From a virus: DNA of 64,000 nt. The stretch lies in IMG/VR virus record IMGVR_UViG_3300045988_112819. The stretch is one strand, 5' to 3'. The position numbers and the translations under genes are program-made. Within the stretch, counting starts at the first letter, position 1; each line of letters starts with the position of its first letter. The notes below the pieces were generated by a model that ran no database searches, had not been told where the DNA came from, and was given only the letters and a program-made list of their open reading frames with translations. Positions 1,841 to 64,000 of this stretch are shown piece by piece.

Positions 1841-2377
1841 TTATACCTTCAATCTCTTGTTAAGTTCAGCAATTAGCTCCTCATTAGTAAAGTCACTAAG
1901 AGACTTCTCATTTTTATCAAGAATGAAAGCCGGCGCGAGCCCGCGGCCGTAGTTGTAGTAGGTGTAGTACGCAGACCCATCGCCGTTGACAGAGCAAACG
2001 CGGTTCGAGGCCCAATTATCTTTCTCAGGAGATCCCCAAGGGGTAACAAGCCAGAACCAATTCTTGATATGAGGAGTTAGAATATGATTATACTTGCGAT
2101 ATTCGTCGAAGGTAAGGGGTGCAACAGCGGTATTTAGCGAACCATATCCTTTATATCCATCCATTGCGGTCAGGTCGACATCGCGCGGAATAGCCTTGAT
2201 GCCAGTTTTCTTAAGCCAAGCCTCAGCGCCCTTCCGCAATGTACTCTCTTTATAGTTATTAGAATTTCCAAAAACAAAATCAATTCCTACTTCAAGTGCA
2301 ATTACGAAGGGGTTACCATCAATTTCGTCAAGAACAAGGCACTTTACTCCATTTACAGTAATAGTCTTTCCAATCAT
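1841..2377 (-). CDS. second DGR target: C-type-lectin/FGE-like (DUF1566-like) protein carrying variable repeat VR2 at its C-terminus (...NGDGSAYYTYYNYGRGLAPAF)
   Basis: Start MIGKTITV at 2377 with AAAGGAAG RBS (ORF track begins at an upstream ATG, 2443); C-terminal 82 bp aligns gaplessly to the TR with all 17 mismatches at TR adenines. Confidence 0.6.
   Translation of the reverse strand: MIGKTITVNGVKCLVLDEIDGNPFVIALEVGIDFVFGNSNNYKESTLRKGAEAWLKKTGIKAIPRDVDLTAMDGYKGYGSLNTAVAPLTFDEYRKYNHILTPHIKNWFWLVTPWGSPEKDNWASNRVCSVNGDGSAYYTYYNYGRGLAPAFILDKNEKSLSDFTNEELIAELNKRLKV
1930..2011 (-). repeat. DGR variable repeat 2 (VR2), remote from the cassette
   Basis: Shares the GC-rich ccggcgcgagcccg end with TR/VR1; 17 of 17 differences from TR fall where TR has adenine on the coding strand. 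Confidence 0.7.
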
Positions 2378-2393
2378 ATTTCTCTTCCTTTCT

Positions 2394-2585
2394 TTAATTA
2401 GAATACTCTTCAACCATTTGAGAAAGCATATCAATTTCATCATCTGTTATGTTATCAAAAAAGATACCGTATTTTGCGCAGATTTGAGCTTGCTGAGATG
2501 GATCGTTCATAGTACATGGCTTTGAAGCTAATTCTCGAGCAGCCAGTTCAAAAGCGCCAGTGTATGCGAGAAATGACATATCCAT
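2394..2585 (-). CDS. hypothetical small protein (63 aa)
   Basis: ORF track. Confidence 0.5.
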   Translation of the reverse strand: MDMSFLAYTGAFELAARELASKPCTMNDPSQQAQICAKYGIFFDNITDDEIDMLSQMVEEYSN

Positions 2586-27907: not shown

Positions 27908-28597
27908 ATGGCTAAGAGTTCTAAAAGATTAGGTAATGCCACTTTTGTCCAGTATGGATATGGTCAAGTGGAGCCAAACCATCTTTCCGCTCCAAGAAAT
28001 GGTCAAGTATATGCTCAGCTTCCCGCAGCTAGCACTATTGAGATTCTTGAGAACGGTCAATTTGTAAAGTATGATTATGCAAAAGGCGTATGCGATTTTA
28101 GTACGGAAGCTACTTCTGGCGCCTGGATGATGGTATTTAATGAAGTAAAGATTTATAGAGATCGCGAAACTGATGCTGATTTTGCTATGATTAAGGATAA
28201 TTATAATGCTCGTGTATATAGTCCAATTGGACAAACAGTTTCTACACTTGCTACAATAAGTGATTATACCGGAGAAGCTGTGCGCGAAGGTAGTGATGTA
28301 GCATATAAGAAAAATATGGAGACATTTACTTATCCTGCATTGATGCCAGAAGGAACTAAAATGGTACCTCGCGTAATTAAGATTAGTATTGGCGATATTT
28401 GGACTACTAATACCATTAAGGCTAATGCCGGAGAACTTGCAGTAGGCGATCGTCTAAAGATTGATACTGATGGATATTTAACTAAAGATACTGAAACTTC
28501 TGCTAAAGGTGGAGATTTAGATCCTATCTTTGCAGTAGTAAAAGTGTATACTATGCCAGATCTTCAACCTGGTGTAAAAGTACAGCGTGTAGGTTAA
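27908..28597 (+). CDS. capsid-associated structural protein (229 aa), TAG-free
   Basis: ORF track; AAGGAGG RBS. Confidence 0.5.
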   Translation: MAKSSKRLGNATFVQYGYGQVEPNHLSAPRNGQVYAQLPAASTIEILENGQFVKYDYAKGVCDFSTEATSGAWMMVFNEVKIYRDRETDADFAMIKDNYNARVYSPIGQTVSTLATISDYTGEAVREGSDVAYKKNMETFTYPALMPEGTKMVPRVIKISIGDIWTTNTIKANAGELAVGDRLKIDTDGYLTKDTETSAKGGDLDPIFAVVKVYTMPDLQPGVKVQRVG

Positions 28598-28616
28598 TTG
28601 GAAGGAGTGAAGAAGA

Positions 28617-29669
28617 ATGTTAGATAAAGCTAATTTACTTAGTTTAATGAAAACTGTCGCTAATGCAAATCCTTCTGGTACCTATAGCTATCAAGGAGAG
28701 TCTTTTAGCTATGACGCTTTAAATACTACTTTGCGTAATGAGCTAAATGAATTTGTTGGCACAGATGAACTTTATAGAGAAAATAAAAATATTCTATTCT
28801 CTTTAATTGAGCAGACTATGGACGAAGTTGTTCCTAATCGTTTACTCAATTCTTATGGCAATTTTGCTGAGATTAGAACTTTCGCACAAGGCGACAAGCC
28901 TGTATTTACTCGTAGAACTGGACTTACTCGCGCTAAGCAATTCATTACTCGTGTGGGGCTTGCTGGTGTGTATGAGACCTTTAAGCTTGGTTCTGAGAGC
29001 TTCGAAGTTGGAACAAGCGCCATTGGTGGAGCTGCTCGTATCGGATTTGAGGAGTTCCTTGATGGAAGAGTAAACTTTGCAGAACTTACTCAAATTGTAA
29101 CAGAGGGTATGCAAGAGCTTATTTATAGAGAGATTGCTCAAGCTCTTATGGGTTCTATCAATCAGCTTCCCGCGGCAAACCGTTGTGCTGTTGCTGGTTT
29201 TGACGAACCAACTATGGATTATCTTGTAAATACTGCTACTGCTTATGGTCAGCCAACTATTTATTGCACTCGTGAGTTTGCAGTAAAAATGATTCCAGAT
29301 AATGATGCTTGGATTTCTGACAACATGAGAGATCAGTATTGGGGAACTGGTTATCTTGCAAATTACAAGGGAACTAGAGTGGTAATTCTACCTCAAACTC
29401 TTGAGGATGAGACTAACTCCAAAAAGATGATCGATCCAGGTTATGCTTGGATTATTCCTGGTGGAGCTGAGAGCCGTCCTGTAAAAGTTGCTTTTGAAGG
29501 TACTACCCACGTGCGCGAACGCAATGATAATGACGACTGGTCTCGTGATATTCAGGTTTACCGTAAGGTTGGTGTCGGTGTAATGATGGCGAATAACATC
29601 TTCTCTTATGTTGATACTGAACTTCAAGGCGAGCTTGATAATACTAACCCAAATCCAAATAATGGTTAA
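28617..29669 (+). CDS. major capsid protein (350 aa), TAG-free
   Basis: ORF track; size and position; GGAAGGAG RBS; followed by an attenuating terminator. Confidence 0.6.
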   Translation: MLDKANLLSLMKTVANANPSGTYSYQGESFSYDALNTTLRNELNEFVGTDELYRENKNILFSLIEQTMDEVVPNRLLNSYGNFAEIRTFAQGDKPVFTRRTGLTRAKQFITRVGLAGVYETFKLGSESFEVGTSAIGGAARIGFEEFLDGRVNFAELTQIVTEGMQELIYREIAQALMGSINQLPAANRCAVAGFDEPTMDYLVNTATAYGQPTIYCTREFAVKMIPDNDAWISDNMRDQYWGTGYLANYKGTRVVILPQTLEDETNSKKMIDPGYAWIIPGGAESRPVKVAFEGTTHVRERNDNDDWSRDIQVYRKVGVGVMMANNIFSYVDTELQGELDNTNPNPNNG

Positions 29670-33417: not shown

Positions 33418-34809
33418 ATGCGTTTTGGTATTCGTGAGATTTGCGATGTAGTACTTCGTGCCAAAAGCTATCAGACTTTAGGTAATCGTAAGTTCTATAA
33501 AAATGAACCAGTTTTGTACTTTGACACTTTAAGAACCTCTACTCTTGAAGGTGCTGCAACAACTGTATACGCACAGGGCGGACGTGGATATACTAGATTG
33601 ATTGCTTGGGAAGGTGAGCGTACTCTAACATTTACAATGGAAGATGCTTTACTTTCTCCAGAGAGCTTCTCTATTCTTTCTGGTGCAGGTCTGCTTGATG
33701 CAACAAAAGAAGCTCCAATTTACGTTCATCAAACTTCTCAGGTAGAAGTTGAAACAGCTAACACTATCGTGATTCCTGATAAAGCTTGCTGGAATGGATT
33801 TGCAGATCATGAAAATGAAATGTATCATCGTTCTGCTGACATTTTTGTAATGGTATTAGGAGATGATGGTCAAGTTAATGCTGAACCATGCATTCCTGTT
33901 TCTGTTTCTTATACAGAGGACGGAAAATCAACTTTAACTTGCTATTCTCATGCGGGAGTGCTCCCATCTGGTACTATCGTTTTAGTTGACTATTATGTAA
34001 AGCGCACTGGTGGCGCCCAGATGATTGAGATTACCGCTGATAAGTTTGGTGGAAACTATTATCTTGAAGCTTCTACTCTATTCCGCCGTGAGAGCGATGG
34101 CGTAGATATGCCTGCTGAATTTATTATTCCTAACTGTAAGGTTCAGAGTAACTTCACATTCAGCATGGCTGCTAACGGTGATCCATCTACCTTTACATTC
34201 ACAATGGACGCTTTCCCAGACTACACTAAGTTTGATCAAACTCATAAAGTTCTTGCCGCTATTCAGGTAATTACTGATGAAACTGGGGAAACCGAAGGAT
34301 CTCGTGAGCCATGCTCTGAGAATGTTGGTACTTATGAGAGTGAAGCTGCTGATGTAACTGTAAATTTTGTTTCTAACAGTGCCACAGAGGCGGAACTTGA
34401 TGTAACTGGTACTGTAACAGGAAAGGCTTATGATACTGAGACTTATGGAGATACAATTCCAGAAGCCGCACAAATTAGCCTCCAAATTCCAGTAGAGAGC
34501 GATAGTACCAAGTATACTGTAGTAATAACTAATCCAGCATATGAGAAATACTTCTCTACTGATGACTGTATTGAGGGCAATACAAAGACTCAAACCGTAG
34601 ATGGCGCAGAATTGGCAGATGGCCTATTAGTAATTCTTACTAAGGAGAGTAATACAACTCCTATTACAGCTAAGATTACTAAGATTAACGGAGACTTTGA
34701 GAAGAGTTATACTATTAATAACAAGCTCAGTTTTGCAGAAAGCACAAGCACTTATTCTGGCGCAAAAATGCGCAATAAGTTAGTCTCTGTTAGCGATGAC
34801 ACCATTTAA
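33418..34809 (+). CDS. major tail protein (463 aa), TAG-free
   Basis: ORF track; AAGGAGG RBS; strong terminator after it; lies before the chaperone and tape-measure genes. Confidence 0.55.
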   Translation: MRFGIREICDVVLRAKSYQTLGNRKFYKNEPVLYFDTLRTSTLEGAATTVYAQGGRGYTRLIAWEGERTLTFTMEDALLSPESFSILSGAGLLDATKEAPIYVHQTSQVEVETANTIVIPDKACWNGFADHENEMYHRSADIFVMVLGDDGQVNAEPCIPVSVSYTEDGKSTLTCYSHAGVLPSGTIVLVDYYVKRTGGAQMIEITADKFGGNYYLEASTLFRRESDGVDMPAEFIIPNCKVQSNFTFSMAANGDPSTFTFTMDAFPDYTKFDQTHKVLAAIQVITDETGETEGSREPCSENVGTYESEAADVTVNFVSNSATEAELDVTGTVTGKAYDTETYGDTIPEAAQISLQIPVESDSTKYTVVITNPAYEKYFSTDDCIEGNTKTQTVDGAELADGLLVILTKESNTTPITAKITKINGDFEKSYTINNKLSFAESTSTYSGAKMRNKLVSVSDDTI

Positions 34810-36376: not shown

Positions 36377-36916
36377 ATGAGTGAAATTACTTTTAAAGAT
36401 TTGGGTTTGGAGCCTAAAATTAAATATACAGAAGTAAAAATTGGAGAAGATAAGATTTTATCTGTGGTTAATTATCTTCCGATTGCAGATAAAACAAATC
36501 TTATTACTTTTGTCGCAGATTTAGCGATAGATGAGATGACTGGGTGTTTTAGTCCGGTAAGAGTAGAAACTTATTTTGCTATTGCTATTTGCAGATGGTA
36601 TGGTGGAATTGTTTTTGAGCAAGAAGATGTGCATGAAAATATTGCCAAAACTTATGATACACTAGAGACTAATGGTGTTATTGATGCAATTAGAAGTGCT
36701 ATTCCAGTAGATGAATTGTCTTTTATTGAAGACTTAGTTAGAGATACTTTAAGCGATATAGCAAGATATAATAACTCTGCCGCAGGCATTATCCAAATGA
36801 TGAATAAAAATGCTTCTGGATTAGATACATATATTACTGATATAATGGAAAAAATTAAAAATGGTGAGAATCTTGAAACTTTATCAGTAATTAAAGATGT
36901 GGTTGGAAAAGATTAA
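36377..36916 (+). CDS. tail assembly chaperone-like protein (179 aa), TAG-free
   Basis: ORF track; sits immediately upstream of the tape measure. Confidence 0.45.
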   Translation: MSEITFKDLGLEPKIKYTEVKIGEDKILSVVNYLPIADKTNLITFVADLAIDEMTGCFSPVRVETYFAIAICRWYGGIVFEQEDVHENIAKTYDTLETNGVIDAIRSAIPVDELSFIEDLVRDTLSDIARYNNSAAGIIQMMNKNASGLDTYITDIMEKIKNGENLETLSVIKDVVGKD

Positions 36917-58986: not shown

Positions 58987-59027
58987 ATGGGGAGAACCTT
59001 GAAATTAAGGTTCTCCCCATTTTTTTT
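58987..59027. terminator. strong bidirectional terminator (atggggagaacctt gaaatt aaggttctccccat) with A7 / T8; end of the late operon
   Basis: 14-bp stem. Confidence 0.8.
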
Positions 59028-59484
59028 ATTTCTCGCAAGGAGGTTTACTATATAAATGATAATGCGGTTTTTCTTCTCCAAACCATTTCCATCTTAGGTA
59101 GTCGTCTAATACTATTGCCAAAAGGCTTAAAAAGAACCAGGCGATAGAGAATGGTAAACAAATCTACCCCATAAAATTCAATGGAACGTGAGAATAATCC
59201 CAAATACCTAAGCCTAGTTTTACATTTAATACTAGACCAAAGATTAATTCTAAAGCAGTTATGATTAAAGAGCCTTTTACTCCTTGAGTAAGAATAGATT
59301 CTTCCCAAAGAACGTTCTCATTCATTAGTCCTATTAATAAAAAGCATAAGCCGCCCAATAAGAACATAGACCAATGACAAGTTCCAAAGCTGATAAAAGT
59401 TTTATAGAGGAACTCTATACCGTAATATAGAGTTCCTCCAACTGCAAATAGAATTATATTTTTACTCACTGTCGGTATCTTCAT
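59026..59484 (-). CDS. multi-pass membrane protein (152 aa), 1 TAG; possible holin-like
   Basis: 4 hydrophobic helices; stop inside the terminator T-run. Confidence 0.45.
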
Positions 59485-60124
59485 AGTTTAATTCAATAGC
59501 TTTTAATTTATCTATTGAATCAGCTTCGAATATCTAAGTTTTATATTCTTGCATTAAATGATATTTGGTATATACCACATTTGAAATAGCTAAACTTAGA
59601 GCGGATAATTGCTCTAAACTCCATGGCACACATTCTTCGTGTCGAGCGTGCCACTCAAGCGTAGGATTTTCTACTTCAGCCGCGAGAGCGACTTGATATT
59701 GATTGAGATTTAAGCTAATCTCAGACTGGTCCTCCTACGTAATTCCATATTCTTTTCCATCAACCCAAGTTAGTGGGTGGGTAGCAAGATACTCTGCGAA
59801 TAGTTTCTTGTTTTCCTCTTGTTTGTCATACTTTGCCTAATCTAAATCAGAAGTGAATGTTCCATCTTCTTGATTATATATTGAATAATTAGGAGTAACA
59901 TCTGATGGAATTGTTTCTATCTCTAATACTTTTACAGCATTAGATTGATTTAATACATCGGCTTTAATTAGAGTATAATGTGTATCTCCATTTGAGCCGA
60001 TAACCCCAGTTCCCTCTTCTTCCTCGCAGGCAACGACAATACCATTTGAGGATTGCAGTTTAATGTAACGTGCTTCTGAAAGAATATCAACTACTACATT
60101 CTCTCTATTTAATAGAATATACAT
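59462..60124 (-). CDS. hypothetical protein (220 aa), 3 TAG; ATG overlaps the RT stop (TAATG)
   Basis: frame continuous past the ORF-track end at a TAG. Confidence 0.45.
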
Positions 60125-61341
60125 TACTTTATTTCAACTCCTTTAAATAATGAACGAAAATAATTGTCCATATCTTGAATTATATAAAAACAAGTTCCTT
60201 TAGAAATATGTGCCCTCCAACCTTGATAGGATTTCTAAATTTCATCTGTTGAAATTTTACCCTCTAACCATAGCGCTTGCATTTTCTTTAACTTTCTGCG
60301 CTAATGAGCCACTTTCTTTTTAAAAGGAATTTGTATTATATGATTAGTGTCTGTGAGATAAAAGTTCCACTTTAAGTATTTTAATGGAGCGTGACGTTTG
60401 CCGTCCGCATGAATAGGAGAGATTCTAGTAATAGTAGTCTTTTTCTTATTCATCTTTAATCCTTGCTTATTTAAGCGAACTTCTATTCTCTTTTCACATT
60501 CGGCTAAGTATTGACTGTCATTGTGGAATAAATATAAATCATCCATATAACGACCATAATACTTAATATGTAACTCTTCTTTGATGAAGTGGTCAATTTC
60601 GTTCAATGCTAGCAATGCGAATAATTGTGATGTTTGACTTCCTAATCCAAGACTTTTATTATCATATTCATAGTATTTGCGGCCAGGCTTAAAATTAGTG
60701 GTACTAATTCTCGTGTATTTGTGCCGTTTACTAATATAATAATCTTTTCCTGGTATGGGAGAGGAATCTTTTGTTAGCTTAAAAGAAAATGTATCTATTA
60801 AATAACAGCATAGTTGATAAATTCTTTTATCTTTTATCAAACGTTTAGCCGCTTTCTTTAAAGATTTATGGTCAATAGAATCAAAATATTTTTGAATATC
60901 AATTCTTAACCCATAAAAATCTTTTCCTAATCCATATTCTCTATGAGCTTGTTGAAGATGTTTCTTTACTCTTTTTAAAGCAAAGTCTATTCCTTTTCCT
61001 CTTAAAGTAGCACAATTATCGTAGATAAATCTAGGAGTTAATTCTGGTAATAAAACTTGTTCACATAACGCATTTTGTACCAGTCTGTCGTTGATATGAC
61101 ACGCTCTTATATCTCTTGGTTTGCCTCGTTCGATTATCGAAAAACAACTAAACACAAGCTATTCGTATTCACACGCTCGCAGATCAGCTTCTGTTTTTAA
61201 AATTGTTTCTATCCTATTCTCTTCAAAATTAATTGTACTATCTTTCCATCGAACGTTTCGGCATACCTTATAAGACGCATCATACATAGTGTCAAAACTA
61301 CAAAAACGCTCGAAAGTAGTATCTTGATTTATTTCAGACAT
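60124..61341 (-). CDS. DGR-type reverse transcriptase (405 aa), 3 in-frame TAG
   Basis: INDRLVQNALC and LRGKGIDFA resemble the Bordetella phage Brt segments FKDRLVQHALC and RPDKGTHAG; motif 4 LGLGSQTSQLFALLALNEIDHF (the SQ hallmark of DGR RTs); motif 5 YGRYMDDLYLF; AAGGAG RBS. Confidence 0.8.
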
Positions 61342-61650
61342 ACTTTCTCCTTATCATGTAGCTATAGTGGTAGCTACTCGAGCTCCACGTCTACAGTCTT
61401 ACTTTATCCACTTTTTCAGTGAAATGGTTAAGTTCTCCTTAGATGAAAAGGCAGATCTACCTATAGTATATTATTCGATAGTTGTAGAGCAAAGCTCTTT
61501 AATGGTCTCTCAATCTCTTCCCCACATAGTGAGTGCAATCCAGAGTAAACCTTAATTAGATGGATAATAATATACTCCGGGGTACTATTTAGGCGTTGCT
61601 CGTTTGCGCTGCTCCGCAGCTTAACTCGCAACATGATAGCTCCATCTAAT

Positions 61651-61750
61651 CCGGCGCGAGCCCGTTGCTGTTGTTGTAGTTGTTGTTGTTCGCAGATCCA
61701 TCGTTGTTGACATTGCAAACGTTGTTCGAGTTGTTGTAGTTACGGGACCG
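61651..61750 (-). repeat. DGR template repeat (TR), 100 bp, AAC-rich on the coding strand (encodes RSRNYNNSNNVCNVNNDGSANNNNYNNSNGLAP)
   Basis: A-specific mismatches against two VRs. Confidence 0.8.
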
Positions 61751-61780
61751 AAAGATACAGAACTTAACCGCAGAAAAATA

Positions 61781-62275
61781 TTATCGACCTCTCCTATGGG
61801 TTTTAGGAGCCGAATATCTATGCTCGACTATAAGTTTATCTCTATTTTTTCTATCTTGGATTGATTCTTTTACTTTCTTAGTCAATCTAGCTAGATGTTC
61901 AAAAGATCTTCTTTTCTTTTTGCTGTTCTGAGCATACTAATAAATACATAGGTCGATTTGTCGAAATATACTATCACAATATTCAATCGCTCTATTGTGA
62001 TATTCATTTCTTTTTGTAAGGGTTTCTTTATCTTTTAAGTTTATCCTACACGCCTCATAACAGCAAGCATGTATACCCTTTCCGCATTTAATTATATCGT
62101 ACCCGAACGCTTGAAGAGGTTGACCCTCTCCAAGCAGTCCAGGTTTGCAGATTTGTTTTCCATCCTTATCAAATTCTCTAGGACAAGTTAAGACTAAAAT
62201 GTAGCCAACCAATTCACGGGCTTTATAAAGACAGTCTTGTTTTGATAGGTGTCTATCCTTTACTTTTACAGACAT
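61781..62275 (-). CDS. Avd-like accessory protein (164 aa), 1 TAG, between VR and TR
   Basis: position typical of avd; N-terminal KARELVGYILVLT-CPREF resembles the Avd four-helix-bundle family; otherwise divergent and Cys-rich. Confidence 0.4.
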
Positions 62276-62356
62276 TTAAAATTTCCCTCACTTGAATATA
62301 TAATTTTTTTATTGGACAATTTAACCTTAACTGTCCCGAATTGTTATTTTGCTGTA

Positions 62357-64000
62357 TTATCCAATGACGAAAGCCGGCGCGAGCCCGCGGCTGCCGCCGT
62401 AGCGGTTGCTGCTCGCAGATCCATCGCTGCTGACACCGCAAACGTTGACCGAGTTGTTGTAGTAACGGGACCGTTCCCAATACCACATCGTTGAATTCGT
62501 CAACGAACCATTGGCGTTCATCTGGTATTTAACTCTAGTAGAGTTGCTTGTATAGTAACTATAGGCCGTCTAACTTCCTCCAACAGTCCACTCCTAATAA
62601 GAACTAGCATAGCCGCTAGAGCTAGTAAATCCCATCTCACATTCAGAAGGTAGCCAACATTTTGCAGTTGTTTGAACATCCGCAGTATTATTCTAATTAC
62701 CATTACTAGCAGAACTTGTCTTCTTAGTAACAGATTTAATAGAAGCGGTTGCGCTACATCTATTACCAAAATCATTGCACAAGGATTGAGCGGTTGAACC
62801 ATTCCATAACGCGTTACTACCAAATGATGTACTGTTAGGTAAAGTTCCCGCAGTCTGGAAAGTTAATGTTCCAGTTCCATCCTAATCAGCACCAATACAA
62901 ATCATTGTAGCAGCGTTGGCACCAAGTACCGCACTAGAAAGACTTACAAGTTTCTTTTTACCTACACATTTCTTTCTTTCACTGGAAGAAGCCTTAGCTG
63001 CCCAGGTCTTTAATCCAGCCCACCACTTAGCATCACCAGTAGCAGTTTCAGAACCCCACTCCCAATAGCTTGCTGTTACTGTAACAGTCTTGTTACCTGG
63101 AGCAGTATGGTTAGTTCCGGCCGCAACTTTAATAGTAATCGTGGTAGAAGAAATAGCTGTACTGCCATCACCTTTAATAGTAAGAATATTACCACTTAAA
63201 GAGAGGGTAAGACCAGTAACACTAGTTGGAGTATAGCTAATAGCTCCATCTCCCGCGCGAGTAATAGTAACTTTAACGCCAGCACTATAATTATCTCCAT
63301 CAAGAGCAACAGAAGTTGGATTTACGGTTAAACTACCCGCGGCTTTATTAATAACCCAGTTTACATCAAGATTATCGGTTGTCTTATCAGCCCATCTATA
63401 GTTGCTCTTTAGAGTAAATGTAGCTGTATAAGTTCCTGCGTTAGTAGCGGAAGTAGTTCCACCAATCGTCATATAAGTGGTATTGAAATTATTCCAATAA
63501 GAAGTTCCACTTACTGATTGACTATTACCTGTATAGGTAAGATTACTTTTCCAGGTTGGTTTAGCGACAGATTTACGCTCAACAGTTACCGTAAATTTCG
63601 CAGATTGAGTTACTTCATTCTCTGTATAAGAAACAGTAATTTGCTAGCTGCCAACTGTAGTTAAGGATGTTGGTGAGCACGTATAACCTGTGACAGCCGC
63701 GCTTTTACTATCAGAGTAACTCGCTGTAACTACCATTCCTGTTGTTTGAAGGGTGTCGCCATATTCATAGGTCATCTTAGTTGGGTTAGTAGTAACCTAA
63801 ATACTAAGAAGTTTATGAATAACAGTTACCTTCTATGCAGTTTGACAAGTTTCACCGAGTTCTGAATAAGTAATAGTTACTTCAGTAACTCCGTCTGTTA
63901 AAGGACTTGGAGTAACTTGATATCCAGTTACTTCTGCTGTTGTTACAATAACACCATCCATGCCGTAAGATGCGGTAACTACCATTCCAGCAGGATTAAA
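62357..64000 (-). CDS. DGR target: tail-fibre-like protein with repeated Ig-like (Big-type) domains and a C-terminal C-type-lectin-fold VR region (...NVCGVSSDGSASSNRYGGSRGLAPAFVIG); N-terminus lies beyond the window end; at least 6 in-frame TAG
   Basis: frame continuous from the window end through ORF-track 62882..63472 to the TAA at 62357; Big-like repeats VTGYxxxPxxLT...ITVxY. Confidence 0.65.
62374..62473 (-). repeat. DGR variable repeat 1 (VR1), 100 bp, at the 3' end of the target gene
   Basis: 17 of 17 differences from TR occur where TR has adenine on the coding strand. Confidence 0.8.

Follow-up and report, generated by a model that had tools for sequence, protein, structure and literature searches.

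A diversity-generating retroelement with one template repeat and two target genes in a TAG-recoded phage genome

The virus record IMGVR_UViG_3300045988_112819, a stretch of 64,000 nucleotides that was analysed as a whole and is called the window below, carries a diversity-generating retroelement (DGR) that we believe, with a probability of about 0.93, to be active in nature. The cassette lies on the minus strand in the order large target gene with its variable repeat (VR1), accessory gene, template repeat (TR), spacer and reverse transcriptase (RT) gene, and a second variable repeat (VR2) is found in a remote small target gene 60 kb away. The case for activity comes from the comparison of related genomes, in which the variable repeats (VRs) differ and the TR is invariant. 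All but one of the testable features of a DGR were found, the exception being the identity of the accessory protein at the sequence level.

On this reading, the element provides a clean natural example of an active DGR, with adenine-only variation in many independent assemblies and with a TR polymorphism copied into both VRs. In addition, one TR serves two targets, and covariation supports an RNA architecture that so far has been defined experimentally only in Bordetella phage BPP-1. What is known about DGRs is left unchanged by this element.

One template repeat and two variable repeats

The TR occupies positions 61651..61750 on the minus strand and is an AAC-rich, non-coding sequence with a 13-nt GC-rich 3′ end, GGGCTCGCGCCGG. 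VR1, at 62374..62473 on the same strand, encodes the final 34 residues of the large target. An earlier note on this DNA described the two as a 100-bp repeat pair whose 17 differences all sit at adenines of the first copy, and the gap-free alignment of 61651-61750 with 62374-62473 (offset 723 nt) bears this out. There are 17 mismatches in 100 nt and 18 over 103 nt, and all 18 fall at T on the plus strand of the TR copy, that is, at A on the minus, coding strand. With 36 A among the 103 bases of the TR, the placement of 18/18 mismatches on A has a hypergeometric P of 1.7e-10. The 18th mismatch is a fixed boundary position, GGATT in the TR and GGCTT in the VR; because C is present there in all the VRs compared, the mismatch is the limit of the transferred stretch and not a product of mutagenesis.

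Translated in the VR frame, the TR reads RSRNYNNSNNVCNVNNDGSANNNNYNNSNGLAPD, with 14 AAC codons and one AAT, in agreement with the asparagine-rich, AAC-rich peptide first noticed. The adenines are at codon positions 1-2 in 35 of 36 cases and are confined almost wholly to AAC, AAT, TAC and GAT codons. Inspection of the TR codons shows that substitutions of A alter the amino acid and that none of them yields a stop. The AAC run also undergoes whole-codon changes in length: VR2 of locus L018 has a one-codon deletion, and the TRs of L053 and L034 have, between them, one six-codon deletion and one one-codon insertion. These changes suggest slippage on top of base substitution.

When the whole window was scanned with the TR, allowing mismatches only at A, a single further match emerged; it covers about 1927-2029, lies on the minus strand and is 60 kb away from the cassette. 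VR2 corresponds to TR positions ~18-99 (about 1930..2011, minus strand); after it, the small target gene runs on for 28 codons to its stop. From TR position 20 to the GC-rich element it has 16 differences from the TR, and 16/16 are at adenines. The earlier note had called the DGR in 60124-64000 complete; the parts of the cassette hold, and what it missed is this remote second VR with its target gene.

The GC-rich 3′ element GGGCT(C/G)GCGCCGG is shared by all three repeats, and after it the sequences diverge. The same boundary, GCGCCGG followed by CTTTC, is found in VR1 and VR2, and ATTAG follows in the TR, an arrangement like that of the initiation of mutagenic homing (IMH) and IMH*-like sequences. 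The TR-side boundary motif, GCGCCGG followed by ATTA, is kept in all RT clades, at RT identities of 58-100%, with the exception of L020, where a motif search of the RT-clade loci did not find it.

The evidence for activity comes from contigs whose RTs are 98-100% identical to that of the window. The TR was compared in nine such genomes, and VR1/TR pairs were compared in the seven that have both. Every one of the VR/TR differences in these seven near-identical genomes (130/130) is at a TR adenine, and 33/36 TR adenines are changed in at least one of them. VR1 is only 76-85% identical between pairs of genomes, compared with 97-100% for the 600 nt upstream and the accessory gene. The TR is the same in the nine genomes except for one C/G single-nucleotide polymorphism (SNP) at TR position 92, within the GC-rich element. 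At this position the VR allele equals the allele of the genome's own TR in 7/7 genomes; therefore, TR-to-VR transfer took place after the SNP arose.

The same pattern is found at greater distances. Four genomes of a clade whose RT is 77% identical share the same RT (100%) and the same TR and yet have four different VRs, with 86/86 differences at A. In a clade with a 62%-identical RT, 36/41 differences are at A, and four of the five non-A differences lie past the boundary. For VR2, ten more genomes were fetched by means of the invariant neighbouring gene, giving 11 with the window. VR2 is on average 79% identical between pairs of these genomes; the remainder of the gene reaches 98.7%, and the 300 nt downstream are 100% identical. 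The exceptions to the adenine rule in VR2 are the mirrored SNP position, two single non-A changes among about 170 differences, and one codon deletion in the AAC run.

Three of the nine near-identical contigs (L003, L005 and L009) stop at or beside the TR or VR. Such ends are consistent with assembly breaks at a repeat or at a heterogeneous site, and they give a weak hint of VR heterogeneity.

Reverse transcriptase, accessory protein and RNA

The RT gene (60124..61341, minus strand) encodes a protein of 405 aa and has three in-frame TAG codons. The segments INDRLVQNALC (residue 83), LRGKGIDFA (113), LGLGSQTSQLF (231) and YGRYMDDLYLF (262) are all present, the hallmark positions being LGLGSQTSQ at 231-239 and YMDD at 265-268. 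The protein matches Pfam RVT_1 (1.3e-16) and phrog_1423, 'reverse transcriptase' (3.5e-84), and its best solved relative is the Bordetella phage RT, bRT (PDB 8ub7_A, E 5.2e-15, 58.8 bits). The alignment with bRT takes in the N-terminal extension, the DRLVQxALC segment, and the LGxxxSQ and YMDD motifs, so that the DGR-type RT proposed from the letters alone is upheld, and both of the Brt segments to which it had been likened sit opposite the corresponding RT segments in the 8ub7_A alignment. The remark that SQ stands here in place of a usual SP needs correction: SQ is itself the DGR hallmark and no deviation. The RT belongs to a family of 1,092 homologues found on contigs of up to ~150 kb.

Between VR1 and the TR lies the accessory gene (61781..62275, minus strand; one in-frame TAG), whose 164-aa product is basic, with an isoelectric point of 9.6 and 18 K/R in the final 50 residues. 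This gene is kept beside the RT in every clade. The AlphaFold model of a 98%-identical homologue, P0121 (predicted local distance difference test score, pLDDT, 88), has four long helices with a β-hairpin between helices 1 and 2, and the best fold matches to this model include Avd; the window protein is accordingly predicted to be a four-helix bundle with a β-hairpin insert between helices 1 and 2. Sequence searches gave no such link. Searches of Pfam, NCBIfam, PHROGs and PDB sequences, with phmmer and profiles, gave no match to the protein, the most distant members of its family have no Pfam match at E up to 5, and its profile, run against 1.84 billion representatives, recovered 28 family members and no bridge to Avd. 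The family is a narrow one, with 88 proteins in an indexed search. We read the accessory protein as a divergent Avd-type protein, on the grounds of the fold model, its position, its conservation by the RT and its basic charge; membership at the sequence level is unproven. The Avd-like open reading frame (ORF) of the earlier note thus stands as regards position and the Avd-like fold of the homologue model and fails as regards sequence similarity to Avd.

The accessory protein has nine Cys residues. C72 is invariant in the family and C100, C110 and H69 are nearly so, which hints at a metal site or at disulfides, features not known from bAvd.

To describe the RNA, 16 distinct TR-to-RT regions, from cassettes with RTs 58-100% identical, were aligned and examined with RNAalifold and explicit pair counts. 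Two long-range duplexes and several hairpins emerge. In P1, the 5′ strand (61640..61654, minus strand) is formed by the TR 3′ end and the next 11 nt, which include the IMH*-like sequence CCGGAUUAGAUGGAG; it pairs with 61437-61448 over 10-12 bp. The ten contiguous pairs of P1 are 99.4% paired with compensatory changes, and in the alifold consensus two further invariant C-G pairs flank them. P0 is a 9-bp duplex between a 5′ strand just upstream of the TR (61759..61768, minus strand) and 61426-61436, with compensatory changes in 6/9 pairs. The 3′ strands of both duplexes belong to one spacer segment, UUUCAUCUAAGG-AGAACUUAACC (61426..61448, minus strand), of which the first 12 nt are the P1 strand and the last 11 nt the P0 strand. 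Since these strands are contiguous, a single spacer segment clamps both ends of the TR.

Directly after the TR is P2, a two-part hairpin (61595..61632, minus strand) in which 8 of the 12 pairs have compensatory changes. A further hairpin, P3 (61357..61395, minus strand; 12 pairs, 9 with compensatory changes), is found just upstream of the ribosome-binding site of the RT gene, and a small hairpin with a short stem (61449-61458) precedes the 3′ strand of P1. Over the whole spacer structure, 97.5% of alignment cells are paired, and 25/38 pairs have compensatory changes, compared with 10 ± 2 in shuffled alignments (0/500 reach the observed count) and 2-6 when the strands are slid. For P0 and P1 together the figures are 11/19 pairs, against 4.1 ± 1.3 shuffled and 0-3 slid.

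In BPP-1, the cDNA is cis-primed at spacer (Sp) nucleotide A56, which a TR:Sp duplex holds beside G117 in the GC-rich TR end (PMC6182149). The cryo-EM structure of the BPP-1 ribonucleoprotein shows an Avd-binding stem-loop just 3′ of the TR and a 'cPRT stop' duplex across the TR, and the stem-loop and duplex were predicted in 207/278 other DGRs (bioRxiv 10.1101/2023.10.23.563531). P1, P2 and P0 are obvious counterparts of the TR:Sp duplex, the stem-loop and the 'cPRT stop' duplex, and by analogy they would share their functions; P2 is accordingly a candidate Avd-binding stem-loop. At the junction of P1 and P0 there is a Shine-Dalgarno-like UAAGGAG (61437-61443), which is invariant in 16/16 diverged spacers, with no ORF starting after it. 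It may mark a priming site or a protein contact.

Targets, proposed mechanism and competing explanations

The large target gene (62357..63985, minus strand) is complete in the window, has the same length in relatives and encodes 542 aa with TAG read as Gln; it consists of Big_3 immunoglobulin (Ig)-like repeats followed by a C-terminal DUF6273 domain with a C-type-lectin fold. Pfam finds Big_3, as well as DUF6273 at residues 394-546, in the 547-residue window fragment, and the C-terminal end of the protein is ...GGSRGLAPAFVIG, followed by the stop. The model of a 62%-identical homologue, P0210 (pLDDT 88, predicted template modelling score 0.85), matches enzymes like the formylglycine-generating enzyme, dozens of classical C-type lectin domains and the DGR variable protein TvpA. 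In this model, VR1 encodes the final four β-strands of the lectin-fold domain. The lectin-fold tip proposed earlier is thus supported by both Pfam and the model.

The small target gene (1841..2443, minus strand) has no in-frame TAG. Its longest ORF is 200 aa, or 178 aa from an internal Met, which is the start that gene callers use in relatives; the gene is called in ten related contigs. The protein matches phrog_9958 (1.2e-32), a family of unknown function, and has no Pfam match; against the DUF6273 profile of the large target, hhalign gives 96%, for an alignment confined to the VR region. L025, from the most divergent clade, has a second DUF6273 gene (2042-2941) beside the cassette, on the opposite strand. 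As it has no VR matching the TR, we reject it as a current target; it may be a former or potential one.

By analogy with BPP-1, we propose that a transcript comprising the 3′ end of the accessory gene, the TR and the 306-nt spacer would fold so that 61426-61448 pairs with both TR ends, in P1 and P0, with P2 forming after the TR. The RT and the basic Avd-like protein would bind this RNA, and cis-primed cDNA synthesis near the GC-rich TR end would misincorporate opposite adenines. The adenine-mutagenised cDNA would then replace VR1 and VR2, with the 3′ boundary set by GGGCT(C/G)GCGCCGG. The comparison of genomes shows part of this last step, namely the transfer of TR sequence and the position of the boundary. 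About 18 residues (VR1) or 15 residues (VR2) on the C-terminal strands of the lectin folds would be randomised, and this without stops because the TR adenines are almost only in the four kinds of codon named above. As a likely outcome, two phage proteins would recognise other ligands or receptors.

Several points weigh against this account. The variation seen is variation between assemblies, with one VR each. VR2 includes the two non-A changes and, in one genome, the codon deletion. The structural models are those of homologues, P0121 and P0210, and not of the window proteins themselves. The priming nucleotide, the binding of Avd to P2 and the integration of cDNA are assigned by analogy only. 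Finally, there is no hairpin of the BPP-1 type, as no perfect stem of at least 6 bp occurs within 120 nt of either VR; after the VR1 boundary there is an AT-rich, imperfect 8-bp hairpin at 37 nt and no other. A GC-rich hairpin or cruciform 3′ of the VR is the target recognition element of BPP-1-type systems and is not universal among DGRs.

The competing explanation that survives best accepts the same active DGR and differs as to its targets. The large target would be an Ig-rich surface adhesin or Hoc-like decoration protein that binds mucus or other glycans, and the small target, which has no TAG, would act elsewhere than on the virion. The 'tail-fibre-like' label initially given to the large target is not borne out: the protein opens with Big_3 repeats, Pfam finds no recognisable virion- or tail-attachment domain in it, and its only PHROG match is a family of unknown function. 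Ig-repeat DGR targets have been found to resemble Hoc-like decoration proteins (PMC11792537), and the small target, well away from the tail module, belongs to a block of TAG-free genes with no assigned function. On the other hand, the cassette abuts a block of tail and tail-fibre genes (45.8-59 kb), published DUF6273 targets have been interpreted as receptor-binding proteins (PMC10743442), and capsid-like and other structural genes are TAG-free as well, so that a TAG-free gene is not necessarily an early one. For the large target by itself, an Ig-rich adhesin or decoration protein is as possible as a tail fibre; for the two targets taken together we regard this explanation as possible but doubtful.

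It is tempting to go further and propose that the accessory protein represents a distinct, Cys/His-bearing hairpin subclass of Avd that DGR finders do not see, and that recoding splits the system in time, the TAG-containing genes being presumed late and the TAG-free small target being independent of recoding. We consider the two together improbable. If they were true, the small target might have a role away from the virion; instead of being a receptor-binding protein, it could, for instance, be a diversified binder that is secreted or stays inside the cell.

The VR differences could also be old variants, sorted by recombination or drift, of a fossil DGR that once diversified its targets and is now inactive. 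There is one TR variant and one VR per assembly, and the window and L013 have identical VR2 sequences, as would suit such an element. Against it, constraint across clades is seen in the RT, accessory gene, TR and RNA helices, all of them intact; genomes with 98-100% identical RTs and flanks each differ in VR1 and VR2, and only at TR adenines; four different VRs accompany a 100% identical RT; and the mirrored SNP requires transfer after the SNP arose. This cross-genome pattern in practice rules out a fossil, and we give that explanation very little weight.

Lastly, the idea that the RT is of another class (group II intron, retron or defence RT) and the repeat pair an unrelated duplication under diversifying selection has next to no probability, even though the C-terminal 170 residues align to the group II intron RT thumb and the top NCBIfam matches are a group II intron RT/maturase (1.3e-20) and then Drt3a/Drt2, for all of these scores are far under the curated cut-offs (TIGR04416, 73.9 bits against 300; Drt3a, the best of the defence-associated DRT2-5 group, 50.6 against 200; retron St85, 32 against 235), bRT scores 58.8 bits against 34.2 for the intron RT, the motif is SQ and not SP, Rfam detects neither an intron nor a retron RNA, nor any family at all, in 59000-64000, and selection cannot confine 130/130 differences to one base of one copy.

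Recoding and relation to known systems

The active DGR described here belongs to a gut phage that reads TAG as Gln. The RT has three in-frame TAG codons, the accessory ORF has one and the large target has seven, as expected from the earlier claim that the element is native to a recoded phage. When TAG is read as sense, stop-free stretches of at least 100 aa rise from 32.8 kb to 79.5 kb and a 2,900-aa ORF appears; recoding of TGA gives no such gain. Where 23 related RTs are aligned, Gln stands opposite TAG far more often than any other residue. Because TAG occupies, in relatives, both of the invariant Q positions of GSQTSQ, where the other sequences have Q in 20/20 and 19/19 cases, we conclude that TAG encodes Gln. 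The RT genes of L050 and L051 have TAG opposite otherwise invariant R and D columns (20/21 of the other sequences each), which may be an alignment artefact or something unusual.

Expression of the RT, accessory and large target genes depends on TAG being read as Gln; that of the TAG-free small target does not. Its neighbourhood is of the same kind: the minus-strand block at 1-19 kb is mostly TAG-free, and a TAG-rich structural block extends from 19.4 kb on, with a tape-measure candidate of ~2,850-2,900 aa that has ~100 in-frame TAG codons. TAG is uneven in this late block and is absent from the capsid-like gene as well as from a few more structural genes (27908-29669, 33418-34809 and 36377-36916 were noted). 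No tRNA gene was found in the 64-kb window or in 17 flanking loci, and a TAG suppressor was thus not located there. With the standard code and family searches, most of the element would be missed, as TAG splits the RT, accessory and large target genes and no family match exists for the accessory protein.

The phage genome is ~145 kb, from related contigs of 137-147 kb. Its capsid-like protein shares 52% identity with that of phAss-1 and 36% with those of Enterococcus phages of ~140 kb. phAss-1 is a siphovirus of the gut that reads TAG as Gln and is predicted to have a host among the Clostridia; a tape-measure gene of similar size and kind has been reported for it, and the phAss-1 paper makes no mention of a DGR. 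Searched at the DNA level against 50,697 phage records, 59000-64000 gave only one match, of 97 nt, and therefore there is no annotated close relative among these records.

Among known DGRs, the order of target with VR, accessory gene, TR, spacer and RT is that of BPP-1 (mtd-avd-TR-brt). Common to the two are adenine-only mutagenesis with an AAC-rich TR, a GC-rich 3′ boundary element followed by diverging IMH and IMH*-like sequences, an RT that among solved structures is closest to bRT, a basic four-helix-bundle accessory protein and a C-type-lectin-fold target tip, the last two as judged from models of homologues. The RNAs share an upstream/downstream duplex, a duplex between the TR 3′ end and the spacer, and a stem-loop right after the TR. 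However, the RT is 77 residues longer than bRT, with an insertion of ~45 aa between the motif-A aspartate region and SQ and a longer, thumb-like C-terminal region. The accessory protein, besides having no sequence similarity to Avd, differs from it in the β-hairpin insert, the nine Cys residues and its length (164 aa, whereas the Avd chain in 8ub7 has 122 residues). In the 306-nt spacer, the pairing strand is ~200 nt from the TR end, compared with Sp 47-56 for the priming strand of BPP-1, and the GC-rich hairpin after the VR is absent. The target is a DUF6273 protein with Ig repeats and not Mtd, there are two targets, one of them remote, and the genes need TAG to be read as Gln.

DUF6273 is a published DGR target domain (PMC10743442, PMC11792537). 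The tentaclin phages nd4 and nd12 (PMC10743442) and the Faecalibacterium prophages Lelie, CP11, Roos and Pioen (PMC11792537) likewise have the VR in a lectin-like DUF6273 domain, and in the phages of these two reports, too, two targets depend on a single TR: a large one with Ig domains, and a small one whose only domain is globular and lies between short helices. The VR-bearing domain is N-terminal in the tentaclins and C-terminal here. From the descriptions of these phages, the present case is also set apart by a small target that lies 60 kb from the cassette and has no Pfam DUF6273 match, and by its host, a TAG-recoded phage of ~145 kb and not a small myovirus or prophage. Treponema denticola TvpA and the C-terminal domain of Legionella Lcl, which are lectin-fold DGR or adhesin domains, are also among the nearest known cases.

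An RT with several in-frame TAG codons beside a recoded target has been described in persister phages of the infant gut (bioRxiv 10.1101/2023.08.07.552389) and in Zeta crAss-like phages (PMC12386605). There, as here, the VR is near the target 3′ end and varies, either with time or from sample to sample. The first of these reports quotes an RT whose sequence is different, and the present phage is not crAss-like, unlike those of the second. Thus, DGRs with a recoded RT and target (bioRxiv 10.1101/2023.08.07.552389; PMC12386605), DUF6273 targets and large-plus-small target pairs (PMC10743442, PMC11792537) are already published. What is added here is an Avd-like protein that is not recognisable by sequence, a remote, TAG-free second target, and covariation for the BPP-1 RNA layout in a DGR that is far removed from that of BPP-1 and whose spacer is much longer.

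Downstream of the RT gene, a conserved 220-aa ORF (59462..60124, minus strand) starts within the RT stop, the two overlapping in TAATG; it has weak matches to DUF4376 (1e-4) and a tail-fibre PHROG (0.01). It is followed by a gene for a 152-aa membrane protein (PF06541, 2.2e-11) at 59026-59484 on the minus strand, and both genes are co-oriented with the cassette in all relatives.

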